Positions 2,229-33,490 of a DNA stretch of 42,791 nucleotides are shown here, piece by piece. The stretch is from a virus. Each line of letters starts with the position of its first letter. Positions within the stretch are counted from its first letter, which is position 1. The stretch is from positions 1 through 42,791 of IMG/VR virus record IMGVR_UViG_3300048904_000146. One strand, written 5' to 3'. The position numbers and the translations under genes are program-made. Below the pieces are notes generated by a model that was not told the DNA's origin, did not search any database, and saw only the letters and a program-made list of their open reading frames with translations.

Positions 2229-4112
2229 CGGCATTGCGAGGTGCTTGCGCCCGCCGAACGCTATCATCTCCAGCGCCCCTGTCTCCAGCGCGAACGACAG
2301 CACCTGTTCCCATTTCCGCTTGAAGTTCGACAGATCCTTCGAGCCGTCGTAGCGATCCTTGAACACCGATCGCGCTACCTCGACGTCGACGCATCTCTTC
2401 CCCTCGATGTCCTGCGCCTCCTCGACCAGCGCCCACTCGACGCTCTCGACCAACAGGTCGACGTGCTTCGGGGTCTTGGTGAGGTCGCGCTGTGACGGCG
2501 GCGCGTCCGACACATAGCAGGAAGTGACCGGCCGGCCGCGGCTGTCGTGGCCTAGCTCGCGCGGGATCAGCGTGAACACGCCGAGGGTGCGCTGCTGCGA
2601 ATCGCGCGACTTGGTGACCTGCAGCTCGCGGATGCTGTTCGTCTTCTCGCGCACGATCTCAAGCACAACGTCGACGTCGTTGTAGATCGCGCCGGCGCCC
2701 CGCTGGCCGCTGCCCCCTTTCGGCGGGTGGTGCGTCACCAGGACGAAGGCGTTGAGCATTTCCGACAGCTTCGACAGCGCCTTCATGGCGACGCCCGCCT
2801 CGCTGTTGTCGTTCTCGTCACGCAACAGCCCCGACGCCGACAGCGTGTCGACCACGATCATGCGAACGGGGATGCCGAACTCTGCCTGCATCGCGTCCAT
2901 CTTGGCGCGCAGGTCGATCGCCAGCGCGTCCAGCGCGCCCGGCGCGGCCAGGTTGTTGATGTCGCCCGCGGCGATCGGCAGCTTGTCGTCTTCGCCGAGC
3001 GCCTGCATGCGCGCCAGCACCGAGCGCCGGCCTTCGCCGGTGAGCAGGATGGAGCCGCCGCGCTCGTCGGGCTCGACGCCAAAGAAGGTCTTGCCTGTCG
3101 CCAGCGCGCGGGCGAGATGCATCGCCACGAAGGTCTTGCCGCCCTGGCTCGGGCCCGACAGCACGCCGACGCCGGTCTGCGGCAGCAGCTCGTAGAAGAG
3201 CCAGGTCGCATCGAAGTCGATGTCGTCGCCGTGCTGCTGCCAGCGGCGGTCGAGCGGCGGCTGCGCCACATAGCGCGGCGCCGGCATGTCTTCGACGCCG
3301 GCGAAATCCACGGCCGGGCTCTGGCCGCCGGCGGCCGACAGCGCGTAGGTGAAGGCGTTCTCCACCTTGGCGCGCAGCTCGTCGAGATCCCAAGGCGGCG
3401 CGCAGCGGGCGTTCCATCGATCGGCCATCAGGTCGAAGACGGCCTGCTCGGACAGCCCCATATCCTTGACGATGCAGGCGACGCGGAAGGTACAGAGATC
3501 GCCGCCCATCCCCTCGATCGCCATAGGCGCTTCGGTGTCCAGGTAGCGGGCGGCGCGGGCAATCGCGAACTCGGTGTCGAGCTCGGTCGCCGCGGCGGCG
3601 TTGCTGCGCTCGCGCGGCGCGTCCAGGCGCGCGATCAGGTGCTCGGGCGCCTCGGCCAGGGGCGCGTCGTTGTCGATCTCGTAGACCCCCTCAGGAACGA
3701 CCGAGCCGGGCGCGATGACATAGCCGTGAGCGCTGCGGATATCGAGCCCCTCGCCGATCTTGCCGACACTCAGGCTCTTCGAGGGGCCAGCGAGGTAGGC
3801 GTGGCGGCCGCCGGTCGGCGTGCGCACCATCAGCGTGTCGAGCGGCAGATCGAGGTCCAGGTAGCTCGACAGCCCGTCCTTGCCCTTCTTCATGTCGACG
3901 TCGACGACGATCATGTCGGTGGTGTCGACGCCGATATTGTGATCGAGCGGCCAGCCGGTGATCGGATCGGTCCACATGGCGAAGACCGCTTCGGAATCGC
4001 AGGTGGCGACGTCGTAGAACTCCTTGACCTTCGGCTCCTTGCGGCCGGCCACGCACGGGAACACCCGGAAGCCCCTGGCCGCCCACGCCAACGCATGATC
4101 GCGCATGGACAT
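2217..4112 (-). CDS. Bifunctional primase-polymerase (PrimPol N-domain) fused to RecA/RepA-type (AAA_25-like) helicase domain
   Basis: N-terminus RGFRVFPC...VVDVDMKKG...PTGGRHAYL (PrimPol motifs); C-half Walker A GPSQGGKTF and Walker B MIVVDTL; start ATG 4112 after GGGGAGGGAG (alternatives ATG 4106, TTG 4136 in TTGA overlap). Confidence 0.9.
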   Translation of the reverse strand: MSMRDHALAWAARGFRVFPCVAGRKEPKVKEFYDVATCDSEAVFAMWTDPITGWPLDHNIGVDTTDMIVVDVDMKKGKDGLSSYLDLDLPLDTLMVRTPTGGRHAYLAGPSKSLSVGKIGEGLDIRSAHGYVIAPGSVVPEGVYEIDNDAPLAEAPEHLIARLDAPRERSNAAAATELDTEFAIARAARYLDTEAPMAIEGMGGDLCTFRVACIVKDMGLSEQAVFDLMADRWNARCAPPWDLDELRAKVENAFTYALSAAGGQSPAVDFAGVEDMPAPRYVAQPPLDRRWQQHGDDIDFDATWLFYELLPQTGVGVLSGPSQGGKTFVAMHLARALATGKTFFGVEPDERGGSILLTGEGRRSVLARMQALGEDDKLPIAAGDINNLAAPGALDALAIDLRAKMDAMQAEFGIPVRMIVVDTLSASGLLRDENDNSEAGVAMKALSKLSEMLNAFVLVTHHPPKGGSGQRGAGAIYNDVDVVLEIVREKTNSIRELQVTKSRDSQQRTLGVFTLIPRELGHDSRGRPVTSCYVSDAPPSQRDLTKTPKHVDLLVESVEWALVEEAQDIEGKRCVDVEVARSVFKDRYDGSKDLSNFKRKWEQVLSFALETGALEMIAFGGRKHLAMPSFG

Positions 4113-4417: not shown

Positions 4418-4431
4418 CTAACAGGTTATGC
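4418..4431 (-). promoter_or_regulatory. Motif copy S3: GCATAACctGTTAG (read on minus strand), 27 nt upstream of ATG 4390
   Basis: One of four sense-oriented copies of GCATAAC-N2-GTTAR; lies in the 54-bp gap between 4445 and 4390. Confidence 0.45.
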
Positions 4432-4720: not shown

Positions 4721-6947
4721 ATGCGCTCACCGCCACCGGCATGTCGGCGCACCATGCGTCCGGCTCTGCCATGATGGCGCGATATTCTTCGGCGGAGCCA
4801 AACAGCTCGTCGACTTCCGACAGGTTCTCGTCGTGCACGGTGAGCACTAGCGGGTAGCCGCGCTCCTCCAGCCGGAACATGCTGCTCACCAGCTTGTCGC
4901 GCGCGAGCCCTTGCACCACGTTGTTGAACTGCAAGCCGCCGTAGAGGGCCAGCCCGTCGGTCCACTTCTTGGTGTAGCTGTCGACCGCGGCGTAGAGCAC
5001 GCGCACTTTCTTGCGGCCCGCGTCGTCCTCGGTCATGTCGAGGCGCGGCATGGCGTAGGAGATCACGCGGCCGCTCGGCAGGCGGCAGTAGAGGAACCCG
5101 TTGGCCGCCAGGTACATCACCCGGCCTTGCAGCACCGGCACCTTGAGCCCCGGCGTCTGTACCGCAGCGATCGCCGCATCCTGCAGATCCCACCAGGCTT
5201 GCACGATATGCGGGTGCGCGGCACGCCAGGCGTTGACGACGCACTTCACGCCGGTCCACGTCTCATGGTCCAGGCCGCGGCTGTCGGCGACCGAGTAGCG
5301 CATCCAGGTATCGTGCCACGTCTCGAGATCGATCGCCGCCTTGGCCGCGGCGGCCACCTCGGCAGGCTTGATCATGTAGACGGCGGCCATGTTGATGTAG
5401 GCGCCGACGCTGCCCTGGTAGCCTAGCGCCAGCTCCTGCACCTTGCCGATCTGGCGCATGAAGCTCTTCTTCGGCATCGTCGCGATGTCGACGCCGAACG
5501 ACCGGGCATAGGACAGGTTGTAGAGGTCGTAGCCGATGCCGGCGTCGAACTGGCGGAATGCCTCGAGCTTCCACGCCTCGCCCGCGATCCAGGCGGCGCC
5601 GCGCCCCTCGATGTTGCTGAAGTCGCCGGAGACGAACTTCTTGCCGGGCGCGGCGATAAGCATCGCGCGCATGCACTTTGCCACCGCCTCCAGCGGCGGG
5701 CCGACGATCATCTCGATCGCATCGACGATCTCCTTGGCGCTGCGCGGCAGCGCGAGCAGGTCGAGGATCATCATGATGTCGGGCAGATCCTCGGCGTCGA
5801 AGCGGAGGAAGTTCTGCGGCTGGATCAGCCGGCCCGCCCACCGCCCGGTGGCCGCGCCGTGGTACGCCAGCGAACCGCGCACGCGCTGGTCGGCGCACAC
5901 GCAGTTCAGCATGGCCTTGAACTTGGCGGTCGACGTCTTGCCGGCCGCGCGCCGCAGGCGAATCGCCTCTTCGGCGGTGCTGTCGCCCATGATGGACGAC
6001 ATCAGCACGATCTCTTCGACTTCGCCCTTGGCGACGCTCTCGCACGGGATGCCGCGCTTGTTCAGCCAGGCGACCAGCTTGGCCGTCTCCGAGCACTTCC
6101 GCACGTCGCCGTCGGTGAGCCACCACATATGGTCGTCGGCGCGCTTCAGCGCCTCGGTCACGACGGCCAGGGCGTGCTCGACCGACTTCACGTCGATCAT
6201 GACGCCGCGGTCGTTGATGCGCTGGTCGAGCTCCCACACGCGCCGCTCTTCGGGAGATAGGGCCGGAATGGACCTATCCACGTCCGTCTCGGTGAGCACG
6301 TCCTGGTCGCAATATTCCTGCAGCCGCTCGACGCGCTCGGCGTCATCCCACCACACGACCGTGCCGTCGGGGTCGATGCGGCGCGGCTTGCACATCCGCA
6401 TCATCAGCGCATGGCCGTCCTTGTCCTTCTGCATCGGCGTCTTCAGCGCCCGCCCCAGCTGGTCGAGCCCGGCGGGCAGCGCCAGCGCGACGGCGCGCGC
6501 CATGGTGCAGTCCTGCTGCTCGACGACCAGGCGCGGCCAGTGTCGGGGGGCCTTGGCGTTCCACAGGTTGCGCTCGAACCCCGCATGGTGCGCGACGACC
6601 TTGCCGCCGGCGGCGACGTGATCGAGCAGCTCCTTGGGGTCTTTGTCGCCCGGTCGCCAGCGCTGCACCGGGCCGCTATCGCCGAGCCGCCACGACATGC
6701 AGATTATGCCCGTCGTGTGGTGCTCGGCGTAGCGGTAGACCCCGGCTTTCTTCAGGTCGACCGTCGAGCGTGTCTCGAAGTCTATGTGGGCTTCAATATT
6801 CGGCGCCGATCTGCCGGCGAAAGCTATTCGAGGCACAGGAGCCGGCGCAGGAGTTGGCGAGCCCAAAGACTCTCGGCTCCAACCATCGACGCCAAACTCA
6901 TGCCGTCGCTCGTAGAAGCCTTCTCCTTGGTACCCGCCGCCACTCAT
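4695..6947 (-). CDS. Family A DNA polymerase with N-terminal 3'-5' exonuclease domain
   Basis: Exo I HIDFETRS; motif A VSGDFSNIEGR; motif B RQIGKVQELALGYQGS; motif C LTVHDEN; ATGA overlap with upstream gene stop supports ATG 6947. Confidence 0.92.
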   Translation of the reverse strand: MSGGGYQGEGFYERRHEFGVDGWSRESLGSPTPAPAPVPRIAFAGRSAPNIEAHIDFETRSTVDLKKAGVYRYAEHHTTGIICMSWRLGDSGPVQRWRPGDKDPKELLDHVAAGGKVVAHHAGFERNLWNAKAPRHWPRLVVEQQDCTMARAVALALPAGLDQLGRALKTPMQKDKDGHALMMRMCKPRRIDPDGTVVWWDDAERVERLQEYCDQDVLTETDVDRSIPALSPEERRVWELDQRINDRGVMIDVKSVEHALAVVTEALKRADDHMWWLTDGDVRKCSETAKLVAWLNKRGIPCESVAKGEVEEIVLMSSIMGDSTAEEAIRLRRAAGKTSTAKFKAMLNCVCADQRVRGSLAYHGAATGRWAGRLIQPQNFLRFDAEDLPDIMMILDLLALPRSAKEIVDAIEMIVGPPLEAVAKCMRAMLIAAPGKKFVSGDFSNIEGRGAAWIAGEAWKLEAFRQFDAGIGYDLYNLSYARSFGVDIATMPKKSFMRQIGKVQELALGYQGSVGAYINMAAVYMIKPAEVAAAAKAAIDLETWHDTWMRYSVADSRGLDHETWTGVKCVVNAWRAAHPHIVQAWWDLQDAAIAAVQTPGLKVPVLQGRVMYLAANGFLYCRLPSGRVISYAMPRLDMTEDDAGRKKVRVLYAAVDSYTKKWTDGLALYGGLQFNNVVQGLARDKLVSSMFRLEERGYPLVLTVHDENLSEVDELFGSAEEYRAIMAEPDAWCADMPVAVSAWEDKRYVK

Positions 6948-10374: not shown

Positions 10375-10388
10375 TTAACGTGTTATGC
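10375..10388 (-). promoter_or_regulatory. Motif copy S2: GCATAACacGTTAA (read on minus strand), 23 nt upstream of ATG 10351
   Basis: In the 53-bp gap between 10405 and 10351; preceded by TCGACA. Confidence 0.45.
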
Positions 10389-15546: not shown

Positions 15547-15560
15547 CTAACACGTTATGC
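15547..15560 (-). promoter_or_regulatory. Motif copy S1: GCATAACgtGTTAG (read on minus strand), 33 nt upstream of GTG 15513, immediately after a strong hairpin
   Basis: Preceded by TTGTCA; lies in the 116-bp gap 15514-15629. Confidence 0.45.
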
Positions 15561-15629: not shown

Positions 15630-16283
15630 CTAGTCGAGAAGACCCACCGCGGCGTTCAAGTCGCGTGCCAGCTCGGCCATGAGGATCTGGCGCATTTCGA
15701 TCTCGGCGATCATGCGCCGCACCTGCTTGACGTTGAGCTTTTCGGCCAGGCGCTTGGTCGCGTAGGCCTGTGCGGTGGTGCGCGCGATGCCGAGCAACTC
15801 GGAGACTTCGCGGTCGTTGCAGCCGGTCGATTCCTTGAACCGCCCAATGAACGACGCGCCCAGATCGGTCTTATTCCGCGGCCGGGGCGCCGCTGGAGCA
15901 CGATCCGGGCTCTTGGCAGGGGTTATAGCCTCGGCGGCTGTTTCGGACTCCAGCGGCGCCGTGGGGGCAATTCGCTGCGCGCCGCACGTCATGCACCGAC
16001 CATTGCCGGCAACAGGCTCCTTGCCGCCGCACGACGCGCCCTGCAGCCCGTTGAGGCGGCACGGCTCAATACCGGGCACCGAAGCGACAGGAACGGCTGC
16101 AGCACTGGCCGCTGCGGTCAGGGTCTCGGCTGCTTCGATTGCAAGGGCGATCTCTAGCGGATCGTCGCAAGGCGTCGCGAAACCGCCGAGGAGCGCAGCC
16201 GCTTCAGCGGTGCGCTCCCCTTCGTTCATCAGCGGGAAGGTGGGATCGGCGGCAAGCGCGGCCCCTGCTTCGTCTGGCGTCAT
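15630..16283 (-). CDS. Zn-ribbon plus helix-turn-helix DNA-binding protein (217 aa), last gene of the early block
   Basis: C-x12-C-x13-C-x2-C segment (EPCRLNG...SCGG...RCMTCG) and C-terminal HTH NDREVSELLGIARTTAQAYATKR; ATG 16283 preferred over GTG 16298. Confidence 0.7.
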   Translation of the reverse strand: MTPDEAGAALAADPTFPLMNEGERTAEAAALLGGFATPCDDPLEIALAIEAAETLTAAASAAAVPVASVPGIEPCRLNGLQGASCGGKEPVAGNGRCMTCGAQRIAPTAPLESETAAEAITPAKSPDRAPAAPRPRNKTDLGASFIGRFKESTGCNDREVSELLGIARTTAQAYATKRLAEKLNVKQVRRMIAEIEMRQILMAELARDLNAAVGLLD

Positions 16284-16284
16284 C

Positions 16285-16452
16285 TCAATTCCCTTCACAA
16301 TACCAGGCGTCGGCGTTCCAGCGCGTGCCCGGCTGCGCAGCGGCGCAGTCCTTGTCCCATTTCGCCTGTAGCGCCAGGCCGCAGCAAAGCAGCGTGAAGC
16401 CTGACAGGATCCACACCGCGACGGCCACGCGGCGGCGATGGCGGGCGCTCAC
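16285..16452 (-). CDS. Micro-ORF encoding a single-pass membrane peptide (55 aa)
   Basis: GTGA overlap with upstream stop; VSARHRRRVAVAVWILSGFTLLCCGLAL...; high GC3; below the ORF-track cutoff. Confidence 0.4.
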   Translation of the reverse strand: MSARHRRRVAVAVWILSGFTLLCCGLALQAKWDKDCAAAQPGTRWNADAWYCEGN

Positions 16453-18200: not shown

Positions 18201-18878
18201 ATGGCTCTCCTAGCACCGCATAACAGCTTCGACACCGATAATGCCGAAAAACCGCGCAAGCGAGGCCGCCCAAAAGGCTCTCGCAACAAGCTGGCGCAAC
18301 GCTTCTTCGAGGATCTCTACGAAGCCTGGGAAGAGCAGGGAGAGAGCGCCATTGCCCGCGCTGCCTTCCACGATCCAGTCGCCTTCGTGTCCATCGTGGC
18401 GCGCTTGATGCCGCAGAAGCTCGAAATCACGCAGCCCACCGACGGCATCAGCGATGAGCGCCTCGCCGAGATGCTCGATTATGCTGAGCGAATGGCAGCG
18501 CTGCGGGACAGCGCCGCAGCAGGCGACCAGGCGCGCGTCATCGAAGGGCGTGCGCACGTGTTGAGCGACGAAAACGGGGTCGCAGCAGAGGTGAACGGGA
18601 TGGGGGGCGGGGGGCCCGATGCGGGTTACCTCCTTGGCGGGGAAAAGACCGCACACACTATTGCGGCCGCACCGGCCGAGACGGCCCCCTCCCCACACAA
18701 GCATAACGGGTTAAGCAATCCCCTCTCCCCTCCATATAGCCTTTCTGCCACAACCCCGCTTCCCCATCCCGTCGGAAAACCACACCCTACTCCCGACCAC
18801 CTGGTCGAACAGCGCAACCGAAATCGGCTTTCCGATATCGCCCGCAACGACCCCATTGACCCCGCCTCGCTTTTCTGA
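18201..18878 (+). CDS. terS: Terminase small subunit (DUF5681-like N-domain) with atypical Pro/Gly-rich C-terminal extension
   Basis: N-terminus KPRKRGRPKGSRNKL...FFEDLYEAWEEQGE...ARLMPQKLEI typical of small terminases of GC-rich proteobacterial phages; position upstream of terL. Confidence 0.7.
   Translation: MALLAPHNSFDTDNAEKPRKRGRPKGSRNKLAQRFFEDLYEAWEEQGESAIARAAFHDPVAFVSIVARLMPQKLEITQPTDGISDERLAEMLDYAERMAALRDSAAAGDQARVIEGRAHVLSDENGVAAEVNGMGGGGPDAGYLLGGEKTAHTIAAAPAETAPSPHKHNGLSNPLSPPYSLSATTPLPHPVGKPHPTPDHLVEQRNRNRLSDIARNDPIDPASLF
18701..18714 (+). promoter_or_regulatory. Motif copy S4: GCATAACggGTTAA (plus strand) inside the terS 3' extension, about 235 nt upstream of tRNA-Gln
   Basis: Fourth copy of GCATAAC-N2-GTTAR, again in the sense orientation of the local genes. 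Confidence 0.4.
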
Positions 18879-23420: not shown

Positions 23421-23660
23421 ATGGACAACCAGCACAAGAAGATCAGCGGTTACCGCGATCTTTCCCAAGCCGAGATCGATAGCATGAACGCGGTCAAGGC
23501 GTTGGAAGCGAAGTTCAATTCGCTTATCGATCGGCTGCGCAACATGGAAGGCGTCGACCAGCGCAATGCCGCGCTAGCGGCGACCCACGGCGAAGATGCT
23601 TTCATGCGCGCGGTTCGCGCTATTGCGCAGCCGGCGCGCCTGACGGATGACAGCCAGTGA
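23421..23660 (+). CDS. Hypothetical protein (79 aa)
   Basis: SD ACGGAGAAC upstream of ATG. Confidence 0.65.
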   Translation: MDNQHKKISGYRDLSQAEIDSMNAVKALEAKFNSLIDRLRNMEGVDQRNAALAATHGEDAFMRAVRAIAQPARLTDDSQ

Positions 23661-26174: not shown

Positions 26175-26609
26175 ATGGCAAATCTCTACTCCACCGAAAC
26201 CGCAGGCGTCGACACCCGCCCGGCCGTCAAGCCGAGCGCCGGCGCCTACGGTGCGCGCTATCGTCGCTACCGCGCGTCGATCACCCTGGCCGCGCAGGCG
26301 ACCACCGACAACATCCTGCTGGCGGTGATCCCGAGCGGCAGCATCTTCGCGGGCGGCGTGCTCACTGCGTCGGTGTCGCTCGGCACCGCGGTTATCGCGA
26401 TCGGCACCTCGCAGACGCATGCCAGCAACGGCCAGCTGCGCGCGGCCGGCACCTTCACCGCCGTCGACACGCCGACCAATTTCGGCAACACGGCAGTGAT
26501 GGCGCAGGCGGCGCTCGCGTCCGACACGCGCATCTATCTGACGATCGCCACCGCGGCGCTGCCGGCGTCGGGCACGCTCGTCGTCGACCTCTACTACTCG
26601 AACGCCTGA
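26175..26609 (+). CDS. Hypothetical structural-module protein (144 aa), possible head decoration or fibre
   Basis: SD GAGGAAA; beta-rich Ala/Thr/Gly composition; directly after the capsid gene. Confidence 0.6.
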   Translation: MANLYSTETAGVDTRPAVKPSAGAYGARYRRYRASITLAAQATTDNILLAVIPSGSIFAGGVLTASVSLGTAVIAIGTSQTHASNGQLRAAGTFTAVDTPTNFGNTAVMAQAALASDTRIYLTIATAALPASGTLVVDLYYSNA

Positions 26610-27115
26610 TGCGCGGGCTGGCGCTCCTCTTCGTCGCGCTGGCCGGGCTCTCCGCGAGCCCGGCCTTTGCGCAGGCGACATACCCCACCGTGGCGGGCTC
26701 GCGCGTCAACGGCGTGGTGAGCCTCACCTGCGACGCGACCGGCGCCAACTGTGCGCCGACGCCGGGCGGCCAGGGAGCGCCGACGTCCGACGCTAACGCC
26801 GGAATCGCGCAATCGTCGACGCCGACAGCGGCGGCCAGCCGCGTGATCAAGGCGTCCCCCGGCAACTTCTATGGCTACAACGTCACGTCTGGCGCGAGCG
26901 CAGGGTACATCCTGATCTACAACGCCACGACGGCGCCGGCGGACGGCACCGTAACGCCCGTCATGTGCTTGCCCTTGGCCGCCAATACCGGCGTAGATAC
27001 GAGCTACCGAACGCCCGAATATTTTAGCGTCGGGATCGTCATCGTCTTTTCGACGACCGGGTGTTTCTCGCAGACCGCGAGCGCCACCGCGTTCATTTCG
27101 GGCAACGCCAAGTGA
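26609..27115 (+). CDS. Predicted exported protein (168 aa) with cleavable signal peptide and 4 Cys
   Basis: MRGLALLFVALAGLSASPAFA-QA (n-h-c regions, AxA site); mature part has 4 Cys; TGATG junction. Confidence 0.65.
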   Translation: MRGLALLFVALAGLSASPAFAQATYPTVAGSRVNGVVSLTCDATGANCAPTPGGQGAPTSDANAGIAQSSTPTAAASRVIKASPGNFYGYNVTSGASAGYILIYNATTAPADGTVTPVMCLPLAANTGVDTSYRTPEYFSVGIVIVFSTTGCFSQTASATAFISGNAK

Positions 27116-27477
27116 TCCGTGCGTTGGTCTACGCAGCGATCGCGCTTTGCCTAGCCGCGGTGCCGTCGCGGGCGCAGGTCGTGTCCCCGCTGTACCCGAC
27201 CGGCTCGTTGATCGATCAGACCGTCGTTACGCTCGACGCCAGCGGCAACGCGACGTGGGCCTTCACGACCGTGTTTCCCGGCGTGCCCGCTATCGTTCAT
27301 CTGCCGAAGCAGATGAACGGCACTGACGCGCTGATCTGCAACTGGACGTCGGTTTCGCAGACCAGCGTCACCATTCATTGCTGGCGCACCAACGTGCTGT
27401 CGGGGCTGCTGTCGGGTTTGCTCGGCGGGTCTGTCACTGGCGCGCAGGTAAGTCTCGTCGCCCGCTATATTCCGTAG
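27112..27477 (+). CDS. Predicted exported protein (121 aa) with signal peptide and 2 Cys
   Basis: GTGA overlap; VIRALVYAAIALCLAAVPSRA-QV; two Cys in the mature part. Confidence 0.55.
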   Translation: MIRALVYAAIALCLAAVPSRAQVVSPLYPTGSLIDQTVVTLDASGNATWAFTTVFPGVPAIVHLPKQMNGTDALICNWTSVSQTSVTIHCWRTNVLSGLLSGLLGGSVTGAQVSLVARYIP

Positions 27478-27487
27478 GAGCCGCCGA

Positions 27488-27691
27488 ATGTCCGTCCAAT
27501 ACGACAGCACCCCGCGAGCGGTGGCCGATGCCTCGAACGTCGCCACGACGCTCGGCGCGGCGTCGCTAGGCGGAACGATCGCGGTGCGCGTGATCATCGA
27601 CGACGCGGTGATCGGCTCGAAGGACACGGCGCTGCGGCACATCGAAGCGGTGATCAAGAAGATCACCGAACAGACCTGGCCGGCGGCCTGA
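27488..27691 (+). CDS. Stand-alone paralogue (67 aa) of the N-terminal domain of the adjacent SGNH protein
   Basis: SD AGGAG; MSVQYDSTPR...LGG..VRVIIDDAV..SK..LR...WPA aligns with residues 1-65 of 27696..29054 at roughly 45 percent identity (hand alignment). Confidence 0.6.
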   Translation: MSVQYDSTPRAVADASNVATTLGAASLGGTIAVRVIIDDAVIGSKDTALRHIEAVIKKITEQTWPAA

Positions 27692-27695
27692 TCCG

Positions 27696-29054
27696 ATGGC
27701 GCAGCAGTACGACGCCACGCCGCGAACCGGAAACGACAACACCGGCATCGCGCTCTCTTCGGCATCCGGACTCGGCGGTCCGGGGGTTCGTGTCGTTGTC
27801 GACGACGCCGTAGCGACATCGAAAGCCGAGGTGCTGCGTATGCTCACTTCGGTCAAGAACCAGATCCTCAAGAACGACTATCCGGCCGTAGCAGGTACGC
27901 CGACACCAGGCGTTACTTTTGCCTTTCCCGCGGTTCAGTCGAAGATGGCGTCGGGGCAGCGATCCCAAATCGGTATCGTCGGTGATTCGGCCGTGGCAGG
28001 CTGGGGTTCGGGCATCCTCACCGGCAACGCTGCGGGGGCCAACGCAGGCAACCCCGGCAACTATGTACGCGCGAAGTCCTGGCCGTCGCAGCTCAAGAAC
28101 CTTCTTGTGGCTGCGGGCATTCCCTGCCGCAGCGATGCATACTTCTCATCGCAGATTGATACCAACCTCACCAACATGCAGTCGGCGAACCCCAATATCG
28201 TGGTCGGCAGCGGGTGGGTTTTGGCTGTATACAGCCTCAGCGGCACCGTCCTTCAGTCTCCCAACACCGTCACCTCGAATACGCAGTTCACGCCCGAGAT
28301 TGCGGCGGACAAGTTCGACATTCTGCACTCGGCGAACGCCGGGCTCGGCACGATCTTGATCACCGACGAGGATGGTCTAAACGTGTCGATCGACTGCAGC
28401 ACGAATGCAGGCGCGCAGGTCATCAACAGCACCGGCCTCGGCATGAAGCGCACCACGGTGTCTCGCCCGGTAGCCTCGACAAAGCCGATCCAGATCAGTC
28501 GCTCGACCGGCGGTGCCATCTACATCGAAGGCATCATCCCGTACAACTCCGTCACGCCCTGCCTTGAGCTGCTCAACATGGGCTGGCCGGGATCGCGGGC
28601 CTATGGCACGAGCGGATCCGGCATCTGGAATATCTGGGCTGATCCGTCCACGATGGGCGCGATCACGCCGTACAACGCCCTCGGCGCGCTCAACTGCGAC
28701 GCCTATATCATCGAGCTTGGAACGAATGACGCGGCAGCGAGCATCGCGGACGCGGACTTCCAGACCGCGATGACTAACATTGCGACCAAGCTGAAGGGCC
28801 AGGCAGGGAACAACGGGCTCAACGTCGCCGTGGTAAAGTGCCGGACGACGATCGGCAGCTACGCCAGCTACAACATGACCCCCGGCTACCTCGCCGCGCT
28901 GGACACGATCACGTCGAGCCTAGGCCTGTCCCCCGTCATCAACTTCAACACTATCAGTTTCGTCACCGCTGATCGCTTCGACGGCACCCATCTTACCGAG
29001 CAGGGCTACGGCAAGGAGGCCGTCGTCGCTCGTGTATCGCTGATAGGCTCGTGA
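27696..29054 (+). CDS. SGNH/GDSL-family hydrolase (probable polysaccharide or LPS esterase) with N-terminal adaptor-like domain
   Basis: Block I IGIVGDSAVAGWG, block III IIELGTNDAA, block V DGTHLTEQGY. Confidence 0.8.
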   Translation: MAQQYDATPRTGNDNTGIALSSASGLGGPGVRVVVDDAVATSKAEVLRMLTSVKNQILKNDYPAVAGTPTPGVTFAFPAVQSKMASGQRSQIGIVGDSAVAGWGSGILTGNAAGANAGNPGNYVRAKSWPSQLKNLLVAAGIPCRSDAYFSSQIDTNLTNMQSANPNIVVGSGWVLAVYSLSGTVLQSPNTVTSNTQFTPEIAADKFDILHSANAGLGTILITDEDGLNVSIDCSTNAGAQVINSTGLGMKRTTVSRPVASTKPIQISRSTGGAIYIEGIIPYNSVTPCLELLNMGWPGSRAYGTSGSGIWNIWADPSTMGAITPYNALGALNCDAYIIELGTNDAAASIADADFQTAMTNIATKLKGQAGNNGLNVAVVKCRTTIGSYASYNMTPGYLAALDTITSSLGLSPVINFNTISFVTADRFDGTHLTEQGYGKEAVVARVSLIGS

Positions 29055-29308
29055 TGAGCACCGCCACCGAACAGTTCGTCGCGGATTTCTGCGCCCCGTT
29101 CCTCCTGTCCATGAAGGCGCTGCTGTCCTTCGATGACACGCCTCGCCTGGGGTGCTTCGTCATGGACACCGAGCACCTGATCTGGTGGAAGGACGGGTTC
29201 TTCGCGGTCTGCGATCCCGACGCCCACGCGGACGCGGTGGCGCAGAAGCTGCGCAACCTGCTCGTGCTGACGTCGGTGTTCGACAATCAGGCCGCGGCGT
29301 CGATCTGA
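29051..29308 (+). CDS. Hypothetical protein (85 aa)
   Basis: GTGA/TGATG junction with the SGNH gene; 3' end overlaps the convergent regulator gene by 22 nt. Confidence 0.55.
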   Translation: MMSTATEQFVADFCAPFLLSMKALLSFDDTPRLGCFVMDTEHLIWWKDGFFAVCDPDAHADAVAQKLRNLLVLTSVFDNQAAASI

Positions 29309-29583
29309 TAGCCGTCCGAGTGTTGCGAGAACAGCAACCGGCCGCCGACCTTGCGATTGACGTTGTGCATGTGAATGCGGAGGATCTGATACGCCTCTTC
29401 GGGCCCGCCATCGGCACGGTCAGAATATAGCATATCGAGCAGGTCTTCGCGGGTGGTCCGTTGGCCTCGGCGCAGCAGCAGGATCTCGACCAGGCGCAGT
29501 TCGGTCGGCGTCAGGTGGACGGTGCGGCCGTTAGCTTGCAGCTGCTGGCGGCGGGTCATCGGCATGGTGAGGCGCACTTGCAT
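29287..29583 (-). CDS. Orphan OmpR/PhoB-type winged-helix DNA-binding domain protein (98 aa, no receiver domain)
   Basis: VHLTPTELRLVEILLLRRGQRTTREDLLDMLY...ILRIHMHNVNRKV...SDGYQI fits the trans_reg_C pattern (LTp.E..LL..L....g.v.sRe.L...v....l.vhI..LR.Kl....GY.l); high GC3 on the minus strand; SD GGGAGAA. Confidence 0.8.
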   Translation of the reverse strand: MQVRLTMPMTRRQQLQANGRTVHLTPTELRLVEILLLRRGQRTTREDLLDMLYSDRADGGPEEAYQILRIHMHNVNRKVGGRLLFSQHSDGYQIDAAA

Positions 29584-29612
29584 ATCGGTTCTCCCAACTC
29601 GACGGGGCCGCC

Positions 29613-29642
29613 AGCATAGTGTATCGCTGCGGCCATGAGCAA
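29613..29642 (-). promoter_or_regulatory. Candidate promoter TTGCTC-N18-TATGCT for the winged-helix gene
   Basis: -35 = reverse complement of 29637-29642 (inside the first codons of the tubular A gene), -10 = reverse complement of 29613-29618; same -10 hexamer as the candidate leftward promoter at 18013. Confidence 0.3.
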
Positions 29643-30261
29643 CCGCACCGAAGTCATCAACCGGGCGCTGATCAAGATCGGGGCCAACACGATCGCCTCT
29701 CCCGACGAGCAGAGCGAGCAGGCGCGCAAGGCTGCGCTGGTGTTTCCGACGGTCGCGAAGAGCGAGCTTCGGGGCCAGGCATGGAACTTCGCCCGCAAGC
29801 GCGCCACGCTCGCGCCCCTGGCCGACACGTCCGCCGGCGGGCAGGAGTTCTCGTCGGCGTTCAACCTACCCACCGACTGTCTGCGGCTGATCTCGCTCAA
29901 CGGCAACTGGGTGTTCTCGTCGATACGCGAAGGCAATGAAGGGCTGTCGCCCGCCTATGCGATCGAGGGCCGCACGCTTCTCACCGGCTCGCCCCGGCGC
30001 AGCAGCGACACCGCCGCGTACATCGCCTATGTCTCGGATCTCAGCGAGCAGGTGTCGCTATGGGATGCGACCTTCGTAGAGGCGTTCGCGTGCCGCTTGG
30101 CCGGCGAGCTGGTGCAGTCGATCGCCAAGAACATGACGCTCAAGCAGTCGCTCAAGCAGGACTATATCGCGGCGCTGCGCGAGGCGAAACGCACCAACGC
30201 TATCGAGCTGCCGCCGCAGACCCTCCCCGACGGCAGTTGGGTGCTGGCGCGCAACACCTGA
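29635..30261 (+). CDS. Tail tubular protein A / adaptor, T7 gp11-like
   Basis: INRALIKIGANTIASPDEQSEQARKAALVFPTVAKSELRGQAWNFA parallels T7 gp11 [46 protein letters not shown]. Confidence 0.8.
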   Translation: MSNRTEVINRALIKIGANTIASPDEQSEQARKAALVFPTVAKSELRGQAWNFARKRATLAPLADTSAGGQEFSSAFNLPTDCLRLISLNGNWVFSSIREGNEGLSPAYAIEGRTLLTGSPRRSSDTAAYIAYVSDLSEQVSLWDATFVEAFACRLAGELVQSIAKNMTLKQSLKQDYIAALREAKRTNAIELPPQTLPDGSWVLARNT

Positions 30262-30274
30262 AGCCGGAGGCCCG

Positions 30275-32545
30275 ATGTCCCGTTTCGCCCCCATCTGGAA
30301 CGCCTTCAACGCCGGCGAGCTGTCGCCGCTGATCGACGGGCGCACCGATCAGGAGAAATACTTCTCGGGCTGCAAGAAGCTCTGCAACTTCATCCCGACC
30401 GTGCAGGGTCCGGCGACGCGGCGCGGCGGCACGCGCTTCCTCGGCTCGACCAAGCTGTCGCGCCGGGCGTGGTTCACGACCTTCGAGTTCAACCAGGCGC
30501 AGAGCTATGTGCTTGAACTCACCGACGGCGCGATGCGCTTTTGGGTGAACCGCGGGCAGCTGCTCAGCGGCGGATCGCCTTACGAGATCGCGACGCCGTG
30601 GAGCGCCGCCGACCTGATCACCGAGGAAGGCACCTTCGCGCTGCGCTCCGTGCAGTCGGCCGACATCATGTGGATCTGCCACGGCTCGGGCGCGCGGCCG
30701 CCGCAGAAGCTATCGCGGCTCGGCGCCACCAACTGGACCCTGGCGCCCGCGCCGTTCGACAACGGCCCGTTCCAGGACGTCGACCCCGACAGCCCCGTCA
30801 CCGTCACGACGAGCGGCGTGGCCGGAACTATCACGATCACCGCCTCGGCGCCGATCTTCAGCGCCGACGACATCGGCACCTCCTTCTACATGGAGCAGGT
30901 CGACGGCACCGGCATCCGCACCTGGGGTGCCAACAAGGTGAACACTGTCGGCGACGTGCGCCGCTACGAGGGCAACTATTACCGCGCCACGGCGAATGGC
31001 GGCGGCACGAACCCGGCCACCGGCAACAGCCCGCCGGTCCACACCGACGGGCGCTATTGGGACGGCGACGGCTACACCGACGCGCCCAACGACGATCTCG
31101 GCAGGCTCGGCGTCGAGTGGCTCTACCTGCACTCGGGCTATGGGTGGGCCAAGATCACCGCGGTCGGCGGCGGGGGAACAACGGCCACGGCCACGGTCGT
31201 CAACGCCAACGGCATCGTCGAGCTGCCGCAGGTGATTTCCACCGACGGCACGAATCGGTGGGCCAAATCCGCGTTCAGCGCGGCACGCGGCTGGCCGACC
31301 AGCGTCGGCTTCTTCCGCGAGCGCCTGGTCTACGCGCGCGACCGCGAGCTGTTCATGTCGGTGGTTGGCGACTTCGACAATTTCACCAGCAAGGACGGGC
31401 CCGACATCACCAAGGAGACGGCGATCAAGCTCAAGATCGCCAGCGACCGGCTCGACCTGATCCGCTGGATCATGCCGAGCGCCGCGCTCCTTGTCGGCAC
31501 CGCGCGCAACGAGTTGTCGGTGCAGGAGCAGACGCCGCAGCAGGTGTTCGCCGCCGACAACGCGATCTCCGTGCCGCAGACCGAATACGGCTCCCGGCTG
31601 CTGGAGCCGATCCGCGTCGGCAACGCGGTGCTCTTCATCCAGCGCGCGGGGCGCAAGCTGCGCGAGATGATCTACGACTATGCCAGCGATCGCTACAAGG
31701 CCGACGACCTGACGGTCCTGTCCGAGCACGTCGTCGACGCCGGCGTGGTCGACATGGATTTCCAGCAGGAGCCCGACAACATCGTCTGGTGCGTGCTCAC
31801 CGACGGCACCATGGCGGCGCTCACCTACAACCGCGAGCGCGGCGTGATCGCGTGGGTGCCGCACGTCATCGGCGGGCCGGGCGCTTTCGTCGAGACAGTT
31901 GCGTCGATCTCCTCGCCCGACGGCCGCCGCGACGACGTGTGGATGGTCGTGCGCCGCACGATCAACGGCAACACCGTCCGCTACGTCGAGGTCATCGAAG
32001 ACCACCGCCTGGTCGAGACGAGCACAAGCGATGCCTTTTATGGCGACGGCGGGATCACCTATGACGGCTCCCCGACCAAGGTGATCACCGGGCTCGGCTA
32101 TCTTGAGGGCGCCACCGTGCAGATCCTCGCCGACGGCAGCGCGCATGCGCCCCTCACCGTCAGCGGCGGACAGATCACGCTAAACCGTTTTGCCTCCAAG
32201 GTGCAGATCGGGTTCGACAGTCCGGCGCAGCTGCAGACGATGCGCGCGGACGGCGGCGCGCAGGACGGCACCGCGCAGACCAGGGCGAAGTCGATCGCCG
32301 AGGTGTACCCGCGCCTGCTCAACACGATCGGCGGGCTGATCGGCCCGGCCTTCAACCGGCTGGACCCGATCCCGCAGCTGCGCCCCGACAACCCGGTGGG
32401 CACGCGACCAGAGCTGTTCAGCGGTGACCGCAAGATCGAGTTCCCCGCGACCTACGACACCGACGGCTATATCTGCCTGCAGTCTTCGCCTATGCTGCCG
32501 CTGACGATCGTATCGATTACGGCACGGATGGAAGTGAATGATTGA
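30275..32545 (+). CDS. Tail tubular protein B (nozzle), T7 gp12-like
   Basis: 756 aa; N-terminus FNAGELSPLIDGRTDQEKY...N.....G....RRGGT resembles gp12 GGISQQPDILRYPDQG...; position after the gp11-like gene; SD GGAGG. Confidence 0.75.
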   Translation: MSRFAPIWNAFNAGELSPLIDGRTDQEKYFSGCKKLCNFIPTVQGPATRRGGTRFLGSTKLSRRAWFTTFEFNQAQSYVLELTDGAMRFWVNRGQLLSGGSPYEIATPWSAADLITEEGTFALRSVQSADIMWICHGSGARPPQKLSRLGATNWTLAPAPFDNGPFQDVDPDSPVTVTTSGVAGTITITASAPIFSADDIGTSFYMEQVDGTGIRTWGANKVNTVGDVRRYEGNYYRATANGGGTNPATGNSPPVHTDGRYWDGDGYTDAPNDDLGRLGVEWLYLHSGYGWAKITAVGGGGTTATATVVNANGIVELPQVISTDGTNRWAKSAFSAARGWPTSVGFFRERLVYARDRELFMSVVGDFDNFTSKDGPDITKETAIKLKIASDRLDLIRWIMPSAALLVGTARNELSVQEQTPQQVFAADNAISVPQTEYGSRLLEPIRVGNAVLFIQRAGRKLREMIYDYASDRYKADDLTVLSEHVVDAGVVDMDFQQEPDNIVWCVLTDGTMAALTYNRERGVIAWVPHVIGGPGAFVETVASISSPDGRRDDVWMVVRRTINGNTVRYVEVIEDHRLVETSTSDAFYGDGGITYDGSPTKVITGLGYLEGATVQILADGSAHAPLTVSGGQITLNRFASKVQIGFDSPAQLQTMRADGGAQDGTAQTRAKSIAEVYPRLLNTIGGLIGPAFNRLDPIPQLRPDNPVGTRPELFSGDRKIEFPATYDTDGYICLQSSPMLPLTIVSITARMEVND

Positions 32546-32960
32546 CGTAATCCCTGCTCGGCCGTGGATGGCAGAGCGGCTACAGCTCCAATCGGCGCAG
32601 CGCCTGGCGGGCGCGATGATGACCCCCGCCGCGATCGAAAGCGCTATGGCCGGAGGTATGGCGCTGGCCGCCGTGGAAGGCGATCAGATATTCTGCATCG
32701 CGGGGATCTACGAGATATGGGACGGTCGCGGGCTGGCATGGGCGCTGCTCTCGCACGACAGCGGCAAGCATATGACCGCGCTCCACCGCGTCACCAAGCG
32801 GGCTCTCGACGTGACCGCCTTTCGTCGTGTAGAAGCGGACGTCTTGAACTCGCATAGCGAAGGGCATCGGTGGATGCAGCTGCTTGGCTTCCAACACGAA
32901 GGGGTGCGGCGCGCGTACTGGCAGGGCCAGGACTACGCGCTGTACGCGCGGGTGCGCTGA
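32538..32960 (+). CDS. GNAT-fold acetyltransferase-like protein (140 aa)
   Basis: C-half FRRVEADVLNSHSEGHRWMQLLGFQHEGVRRAYWQGQDYALYARV resembles the R.E..V...N..a......lGF..EG..r pattern of GNAT enzymes. Confidence 0.55.
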   Translation: MIDVIPARPWMAERLQLQSAQRLAGAMMTPAAIESAMAGGMALAAVEGDQIFCIAGIYEIWDGRGLAWALLSHDSGKHMTALHRVTKRALDVTAFRRVEADVLNSHSEGHRWMQLLGFQHEGVRRAYWQGQDYALYARVR

Positions 32961-33490
32961 TGGCGTTCATCGCTCCTGCCTTGGCCGCGCTGGGCACCGC
33001 GGTGGGTGCTTCGGGCGCGGCGGCCACCGCCGTCGGCGCAACCGTCGCATCGACCGGCGTTGCGGTGCTCGGCACCGCCGCCTCGTCGCTCGCCGCCTCG
33101 AACGCCGCCGACTTCCAGGCCAAGCTCGCGCAGCAACAGGCGCAGCAGGCGACCGATCAGGCGTCGGTGCGCGCCGGTGAGGTTGCCCGGGAGAGCCGCC
33201 AGCGCATGGCCGCCGCGCGCGCTGGCGCGATCCAGAACGGGTTCGAGCTTACCGGTTCGATGAACGATCTGCTCGACCAGACGTCGCGGCAGGGCCAGCT
33301 CGATTACCTGACGGCGGTCTATGACGGGTCCGTGCAGGCGACCGGGCTCAACGCCACCGCCACCAACTATCGCCGCCAGAGCAGCAGCGCATTGATCGGC
33401 GGCGCGCTCGGCGCCGGATCGCAGGCGCTCGGCGGGCTCGCGCAGGTCTACCGGCAGAAGGGCTCCTCCATCAGCGTGAGCGGAACCTAA
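32960..33490 (+). CDS. Internal virion protein (gp14-position; 176 aa) with Ala/Gly-rich hydrophobic N-terminus
   Basis: TGATG junction; MAFIAPALAALGTAVGASGAAATAVGATVAS...; coiled Gln/Ala-rich middle. Confidence 0.6.
   Translation: MAFIAPALAALGTAVGASGAAATAVGATVASTGVAVLGTAASSLAASNAADFQAKLAQQQAQQATDQASVRAGEVARESRQRMAAARAGAIQNGFELTGSMNDLLDQTSRQGQLDYLTAVYDGSVQATGLNATATNYRRQSSSALIGGALGAGSQALGGLAQVYRQKGSSISVSGT

Follow-up and report, generated by a model that had tools for sequence, protein, structure and literature searches.

A stand-alone OmpR/PhoB-type winged-helix gene placed antisense within the structural operon of a podophage

Closest Described Systems

Small OmpR-type proteins that lack a receiver domain have already been annotated in phages: RDJL Phi 1 gp37 and its RDJL Phi 2 counterpart "CtrA", RcSalem gp58 and others (Rhodobacter capsulatus) and vB_PmaS-R3 gp25 (Paracoccus) are all receiver-less and phage-encoded. 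The same holds for the gene that we describe here, which occupies positions 29287..29583 on the minus strand of IMG/VR virus record IMGVR_UViG_3300048904_000146, a stretch of 42,791 nucleotides (nt) analyzed at its full length and hereafter called the window. Codon GC and the ratio of non-synonymous to synonymous substitution rates (dN/dS) mark it as a gene, and Pfam, AlphaFold2 and Foldseek characterize its product as a stand-alone OmpR/PhoB-type winged-helix protein of 98 amino acids (aa). An earlier note on this DNA had held that no phage system of this kind was described, which was overstated: such proteins are on record in the RDJL, Rhodobacter and Paracoccus phages and in phrog_731. The kind itself is known but unstudied, in that the RDJL-type short OmpR genes, whose hosts are Alphaproteobacteria, are functionally uncharacterized, and literature searches turned up no work on the function of OmpR-type proteins without receiver in phages. 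What is unusual here is the antisense placement in a structural operon and an Ala-Ala ending that recurs family-wide.

The best viral structural match to the window protein is the RDJL Phi 2 "transcriptional regulator CtrA" (151 aa; E=3.9e-4, template-modeling (TM) score 0.67), and the differences between the two are considerable. The RDJL protein reproduces the CtrA DNA-binding domain almost exactly (…DEPELKIIDVFVCKARRKL…ETVWGQGY), continues for another ~55 aa at its C-terminus and lacks an Ala-Ala end, whereas the window protein has a PmrA-like recognition helix and ends AAA. Moreover, RDJL Phi 1 gp37 is co-directional in an early/replication operon, unlike the antisense gene of the window, and RDJL-type phages were not reached by tblastn with the window protein. 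Among solved structures, the best sequence and fold matches are the domains of PmrA/BasR, CarR (BqsR) and KdpE (PDB 4s04, 2m87, 9yfa, 3zq7). These are C-terminal halves of two-component regulators under phosphorylation control, whereas the window encodes no cognate histidine kinase among its called genes, as judged from Pfam and PHROG scans.

CtrA itself, whose ClpXP degron is listed as ...NEQVNAA (PMC8138137), resembles the window protein in the alpha1-alpha2 region and the acidic loop (residues 13-55) as well as in the terminal Ala-Ala. It differs in having a receiver and other recognition-helix residues, and the phage lacks the TTAA-N7-TTAA boxes of CtrA/PmrA type, of which the window contains none, even at one mismatch. 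The nearest characterized analog is RoeA of Yersinia entomophaga, a 15-kDa PhoB-like activator of a phage-like lysis cassette without a phosphorylation domain (PMC10101115). RoeA shares with the window protein its small size, a receiver-less winged helix of PhoB type and a tie to phage-derived genes; unlike the window protein, it is chromosomal, gammaproteobacterial and provided with a C-terminal extension of ~40 aa, and the likeness is one of description.

From the standpoint of gene organization, the appropriate comparison is with morons, the textbook case of accessory genes, such as lambda bor, that lie in opposite orientation in late operons; the concept is reportedly due to Hendrix and colleagues. 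The winged-helix gene is moron-like in being absent at the same junction in close relatives and independently oriented in a late operon. Classic morons carry a recognizable promoter and terminator and are expressed from prophages, whereas the window gene shows a chance-level promoter match, no terminator was found for it, and the phage has no obvious lysogeny genes.

A Genuine Gene for a Bare Winged-Helix Domain

Since a window of 65% GC is rich in long spurious open reading frames (ORFs), the length of an ORF alone is no proof of a gene. The ORF 29287..29583 starts with ATG and encodes 98 aa (MQVRLTMPMT...YQIDAAA), and several lines of evidence agree that it is a genuine gene for a bare OmpR/PhoB-type winged-helix domain, for which DNA binding is predicted. 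Its product matches Pfam PF00486 (Trans_reg_C) at 32.1 bits, above the gathering cut-off of 26.2 (E=1.2e-7), over residues 19-92 and profile positions 1-75 of 77; the profile check that the earlier note had proposed was in this way run and passed. GC content by codon position is 0.71/0.40/0.80, a pattern present in the frame of this ORF only. M1 is supported as the start codon by a Shine-Dalgarno sequence GGGAGAA at 29589..29595 (minus strand), 5 nt upstream of the ATG at 29583, and in the alignment the N-terminus of one family member, P0006, reads MQIRMTWPM, to be compared with MQVRLTMPM in the window protein.

An AlphaFold2 model, for which a 37-sequence family alignment served as input, reached a mean predicted local distance difference test (pLDDT) score of 91.4 and a predicted TM score of 0.82. 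It comprises strands 14-17 and 20-23, helices 26-37, 45-53 and 64-79, and a wing hairpin at 84-94; the N-terminal cap and beta-strands take up residues 3-23, and the protein closes with a C-terminal DAAA tail. Foldseek matched the model with probability 1.0 and TM scores of 0.65-0.78 to the DNA-binding domains of KdpE, PmrA, PhoP, PhoB and CovR, while by sequence the nearest solved chains are the CarR and BasR/PmrA domains. Helix 64-79 is the predicted recognition helix (...QILRIHMHNVNRKV), and its sequence LRIHMHNVNRKVG is similar to that of BasR, LEVHIHNLREKIG. Because the DNA-binding domain fills all 98 residues, there is no receiver or sensor part, and neither Pfam nor NCBIfam nor the model gave any match in the protein to a receiver (REC) domain with a phospho-acceptor aspartate. 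The description of the product as a bare trans_reg_C effector domain, devoid of receiver and sensor, is thus borne out by profile and predicted fold alike.

A further minus-strand ORF, 29556-29936 (126 aa, GC content of 0.83 at third codon positions (GC3)), lies antisense to the tail tubular protein A gene (tubA) and overlaps the start of the winged-helix gene. This ORF merely shadows the tubA frame and was not chosen by the gene caller.

One Close Homolog and Purifying Selection

A single close homolog (P0001, 92% aa identity), located on a contig of 378 bp (L001), emerged from databases that derive from about 15 billion proteins, and it was the only one retrieved both by a word-indexed search and by exhaustive HMMER scanning. 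This contig represents the same junction, being 100% identical to the window over the 51-bp spacer and over the 27 nt with which tubA begins. Between the two copies, 21 codons carry synonymous and 8 non-synonymous changes, giving a dN/dS of 0.11, and such a value between diverged copies that share one junction points to purifying selection since the insertion.

Elsewhere the gene is hardly to be seen. Neither megablast of positions 27000-33000 nor tblastn of the 98-aa protein matched any of 50,697 phage records; a viral-contig scan with the window protein returned nothing, and a genome-contig scan recovered only generic response-regulator C-terminal domains at 30-41% identity. The contig L001 stems from a very fragmented assembly (NCBI GCA_013565735.1, contig JACCDR011882037), and capsid homologs of ~2 kb from NCBI (P0154, P0161, P0164) may belong to the phage behind it.

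A Family of Small Stand-Alone OmpR-Type Domains

More distant relatives are numerous. In the best 150 exhaustive HMMER hits (P0001-P0150), 107 proteins have a length of 150 aa or less and can for this reason be regarded as stand-alone domains. An N-terminal motif M-T-[WLM]-P-x-x-x-R is found in 36 hits and reads LTMPMTRR in the window protein, where its counterpart, L5-T6-M7-P8...R12, directly precedes the first strand. No variation is seen at T6 and P8 across the 37 sequences of the alignment, and M5 and R12 show a conservation of at least 90%; an acidic, proline-rich alpha2-alpha3 loop (PDPDxEP) is also conserved across the family, and the recognition helix varies strongly between members. 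Matches to phrog_731, for which no function is assigned, were obtained for the window protein (E=5.3e-7) and for 24 of the 37 aligned members. With P0022 as query, short homologs appeared in Roseobacter, Rhodobacter and Paracoccus phages, and others are annotated in uncultured Caudovirales. By its sequence and by its length, which falls within the ~90-150 aa of the group, the window protein is a member of a phage-borne phrog_731/MTWPxxRR stand-alone family.

Wherever the contigs were long enough, members of this family were found on phage DNA, usually in co-directional, early-looking operons (L100, L102, L187). One member, in L188, follows a 2197-aa virion gene and another, in L189, lies inside a structural module; a locus scan with a subset alignment (A4) gave three viral loci.

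Regarding affinities within the OmpR family, the best NCBIfam model for the window protein is PmrA (NF007928), with 36 bits against an equivalog cut-off of 330 and over the DNA-binding domain only, followed by CtrA (NF045991), with 27.6 bits against 350 and over residues 13-55 only. Orthology to either CtrA or PmrA/BasR was ruled out on these scores. Within the 37 aligned members, 21 match the PmrA profile, 17 PhoB and 14 CtrA, and the nearest full-length response regulators examined (P0029, 51% identical, P0117, P0043 and P0071) all have CtrA as their best-scoring model. As far as sequence comparison goes, the window protein falls, in diverged form, on the CtrA/PmrA side of the OmpR family and is an ortholog of neither.

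An Ala-Ala C-terminus is shared by 32 of 151 family sequences (21%) and by 13 of the 36 that bear the N-terminal motif; the window protein itself ends DAAA. The corresponding rate is 5.4% in 1526 crudely called control ORFs from high-GC phage loci (Fisher p=6e-10), an enrichment of about 4-5-fold. An estimate of ~33-fold, calculated from alanine frequency alone, was discarded as too generous. For ssrA-like tags to be recognized by ClpXP, the Ala-Ala at the very end is critical (PMC10862746), and the shared ending suggests a regulated instability of the family proteins; family-wide, it predicts that this instability would depend on ClpXP.

A Variable Slot Between Head Genes and tubA

The region between a 144-aa head-associated gene and tubA behaves as a hotspot of gene replacement and rearrangement, its content differing in every close relative. 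The winged-helix gene, the 85-aa gene that converges on it and an adjacent esterase gene are all absent from the six relatives compared (L004, L005, L190, L191, L192 and L193), whose capsid protein is 81-90% identical to that of the window. The slot extends over 26609-29634 in the window, and over 6288-7364 in L004, 3686-6298 in L005, 7390-8466 in L190, 7391-11003 in L191 and 7393-8821 in L192. From the conserved 67-aa gene to tubA, the relatives carry on the plus strand a gene of 285 aa (L004), genes of 75 and 747 aa (L005), a gene of 280 aa (L190), genes of 95, 654, 180 and 165 aa (L191), or genes of 281 and 122 aa (L192 and L193). In the window the slot has been rearranged, as homologs of the 280-aa and 122-aa genes of the relatives precede the 67-aa gene instead of following it.

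The window becomes similar to the relatives again only at ~22 nt before the ATG of tubA, which places the right edge of the insertion near 29612. Its absence at the same junction in the relatives indicates that the winged-helix gene, which is monocistronic, is an accessory insertion, outside the conserved regulatory circuit. The slot comparison at the same time marks the head-tail junction as an accessory-gene hotspot.

Expression Signals

Late transcripts bound for the tail genes would, by geometry, cross 326 nt antisense to the winged-helix gene. As to how the gene itself might be transcribed, the earlier note had proposed a minus-strand promoter at 29613..29642, composed of TTGCTC (29642-29637), 18 nt and TATGCT (29618-29613). 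The hexamers, their spacing and their overlap with the first codons of tubA are as described; the significance as a promoter did not hold up. The two hexamers match the sigma-70 consensus in 3/6 and 4/6 positions, and sites of this 7/12 grade occur at 1.6 per kb per strand, i.e., with a probability of ~0.15 per 100 nt. Furthermore, the -35 hexamer corresponds to tubA codons 1-3, which are conserved in every relative, and a standard promoter scan reported nothing at 29613-29642. Genome-wide sigma-70 scans are uninformative here, because their counts equal the shuffle expectation. Neither a 5'-leader hairpin (z = -1.55) nor a plus-strand hairpin (z = +0.2) was significant.

A perfect 10-bp inverted repeat (29543-29552 / 29607-29616, with 54 nt between the arms) brackets the Shine-Dalgarno sequence and start codon of the winged-helix gene, and L001 retains it at 9 of 10 positions. 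Its folds are no better than those of shuffled sequence (z = -1.55).

The GCATAAC-N2-GTTAR Motif

The window contains four copies of the 14-mer GCATAAC-N2-GTTAR, against 0.07 expected, at 4418-4431, 10375-10388 and 15547-15560 on the minus strand and at 18701-18714 on the plus strand. All four precede the first gene of an operon, at a distance of 20-35 nt from its ribosome-binding site; no consistent -35 element was found near the copies, and the motif is probably a phage promoter or operator element. Equivalent positions hold three copies in IMGVR_UViG_3300028590_000045, a relative of 41 kb fully covered by L106, L004 and L186 (copies at 3955 on the plus and 589 on the minus strand of L106, and at 5057 on the plus strand of L186).

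The 225-aa ORF 18201-18878 (plus strand), which holds the copy at 18701, has a very low coding score, 0.08 per codon. It is probably no gene but the leader of the late operon, upstream of the terminase gene.

Functional Readings and Their Weight

The reading that we find most likely, though about evenly poised between true and false, is that the gene encodes a transcription factor that acts without phosphorylation and is directed at the DNA of the host or of a competitor, an accessory function that may be silenced by head-on late transcription and perhaps by ClpXP. Lacking a receiver domain, the protein would bind DNA free of phosphorylation control, and its activity would be set only by the amount made and the speed of its destruction. 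Probably the RNA polymerase of the host would transcribe the gene before late transcription sets in, starting at the border with tubA from a promoter that is weak and ad hoc. Head-on late read-through would then shut the gene off by collision and by the 326-nt antisense overlap, and the C-terminal Ala-Ala-Ala may deliver the protein already made to ClpXP. Its targets could be host promoters, where it would act as mimic or competitor of a CtrA/PmrA-like regulator, or else a competing genetic element; they most likely lie outside the core circuit of the phage, since relatives do without the gene and no OmpR-style tandem sites were found. Mimicry of a host regulator, which the earlier note had linked to phosphate or envelope-stress regulons, appears plausible, with PmrA and CtrA as the nearest profiles and no pho-box or OmpR-box link indicated.

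Several points weigh against this reading. In some proteins of the OmpR family, the DNA-binding domain has little affinity for DNA when it stands on its own. The winged-helix gene is known here from its sequence alone, and no host regulator or regulon can be named. DNA specificity cannot be deduced either, given a recognition helix (HMHNVNRK) that is unlike that of CtrA and like that of PmrA/BasR. The candidate promoter is a chance-level match and hence putative only, and no intrinsic terminator was found downstream of the gene, either by scan or by folding (z = -1.0). With a control rate of 5.4%, many Ala-Ala ends must be fortuitous, and such an ending is necessary but not sufficient for recognition by ClpXP (PMC10862746). 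In addition, degenerate sites within the phage would have escaped a search that covered exact hexamers and one known box.

Alternatively, the protein could serve the phage itself, binding its own DNA at the 51-bp tubA leader or at its own promoter and in this way tuning when or how strongly the tail genes are expressed, or repressing its own synthesis, a possibility that we hold to be rather unlikely. The gene does lie at the head/tail boundary, divergent from tubA over a spacer (29584..29634) that is 100% conserved in L001, although this conservation is uninformative, as it concerns one sequence only and the flanks are entirely identical. The window has few other recognized DNA-binding proteins, with only a weak Xre-like match in 15630..16298, and the wide variation of recognition helices in the family is what would be expected for phage-specific operators. 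However, the six close relatives possess the same tubA and nozzle genes without the winged-helix gene, and a search of the window yielded neither tandem sites nor the one known box, none of the exact hexamers repeated at 10-11 bp spacing being AT-rich. A more specific version, already raised in the earlier note, would have the protein read the four-copy GCATAAC-N2-GTTAR upstream of operon-first genes. The motif is real, and its TAAC/GTTA half-sites, which we presume to be loosely like the CtrA-type TTAAC half-site, offer a lead and nothing beyond. Nevertheless, tandem repeats are the typical binding sites of OmpR-family domains, and the two halves of the motif are inverted; moreover, the relative IMGVR_UViG_3300028590_000045, covered from end to end, keeps the motif with no winged-helix gene detected in any of its six frames by the family hidden Markov model. 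The winged-helix protein is accordingly not the motif's required reader and drops out as a candidate for this role, so that we find this version scarcely credible.

The two remaining explanations dispense with a function of the protein. According to one of them, which seems to us improbable, the gene is a passenger brought in by recent illegitimate recombination together with the esterase and 85-aa block, poorly or never expressed and without selected function. A chance-level promoter assembled from pre-existing tubA sequence, the missing terminator, a codon-usage score of 0.24 per codon, compared with 0.38-0.45 in neighboring core genes, and the extreme rarity of the gene, of which one other copy was found, would all fit with this. 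Against it stand the dN/dS of 0.11 between two copies at the same junction, which speaks for selection since the insertion, an intact reading frame and a strong Shine-Dalgarno sequence. The same substitution pattern bears on the idea, also put forward in the earlier note, of a transcriptional-interference switch in which antisense transcription, and not the protein, throttles late read-through into the tail genes. Head-on geometry, the antisense stretch of 326 nt and the want of a terminator would lend themselves to it; but it is the amino-acid sequence that is under purifying selection, and the fold is both conserved and predicted with confidence. Besides, a strong late transcription unit cannot be blocked from a promoter as weak as this one, and the relatives need no such switch. 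As a main function it is very unlikely.

To return to the accessory transcription factor, it may be placed in a broader and decidedly speculative picture, to which we attach little probability: phages, chiefly those of Alphaproteobacteria, would carry a family of short-lived, CtrA-clade domain copies, with an MTWPxxRR cap at the N-terminus and an Ala-Ala ClpXP tag at the C-terminus, that act independently of phosphorylation as mimics or competitors of regulators of the host cell cycle or envelope. In the present phage, head-on late transcription would end their action, leaving a self-timed early pulse in which the host is reprogrammed. If this were true, domain-only regulators acting on host promoters would constitute a simple bypass of two-component signaling, the phage supplying the output domain without the phosphorylation switch and for a limited time. 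Alphaproteobacterial phages are known to use host CtrA-binding sites (PMC9437464), and phage-borne regulators would complement this strategy. The practical value is smaller for the winged-helix gene of this window than for the family.

Genome Setting and Neighboring Genes

By its predicted proteins, the window is a BcepC6B/RpY1/HTVC010P-like podophage. PHROG matches identify tail tubular protein A (phrog_394), nozzle (phrog_376), portal, major capsid and large terminase genes, and a minus-strand replication arm encodes a PrimPol-helicase, a family A DNA polymerase, an Enc34-type single-stranded DNA-binding protein, a DUF2800 nuclease and an SNF2 helicase. Pfam and PHROG scans of the window found no integrase, repressor or obvious lysogeny genes. 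Among cultured phages, its closest relatives have Ralstonia, Burkholderia, Stenotrophomonas and Pelagibacter as hosts.

As the earlier note had observed of its 24-kb rightward cluster, the winged-helix ORF is the sole minus-strand gene, here in the calls of a codon-usage gene caller within 18201-42383. Its antisense position in the structural operon, at the head/tail boundary and abutting tubA, is likewise as described there, and the neighbor is indeed tail tubular protein A (29635..30261, plus strand; phrog_394, E=2.6e-48), the conserved right border of the slot. The convergent 85-aa gene (29051..29308, plus strand; GC3 0.92), also predicted by the codon-usage gene caller, shares with the winged-helix gene the 22-nt overlap of 3' ends (29287-29308) that had been reported; it begins with a GTG that overlaps the stop codon of the esterase gene before it. 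It has no match in Pfam, PHROG, NCBIfam or PADLOC and no homolog in any fetched locus; the PADLOC scan gave only a weak, meaningless TPR match.

In the same variable slot, a gene at 27696..29054 (plus strand) encodes a GDSL/SGNH-like esterase of 452 aa, which scores 31.4 bits against Lipase_GDSL_2, slightly below the cut-off of 32.9. The first 64 aa of the esterase are a paralog (42% identity) of the product of the preceding 67-aa gene (27488..27691, plus strand), which suggests a common virion-anchoring module to which the esterase has an enzymatic C-terminal part added on.

Farther upstream, directly after the portal gene, a 79-aa gene (23421-23660, plus strand) matches the Acb2/Tad1 hairpin domain PF24729 with E=7.5e-20. 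Co-directional within the structural module, it likely encodes a sponge for cyclic-nucleotide immune signals (anti-CBASS/Thoeris).

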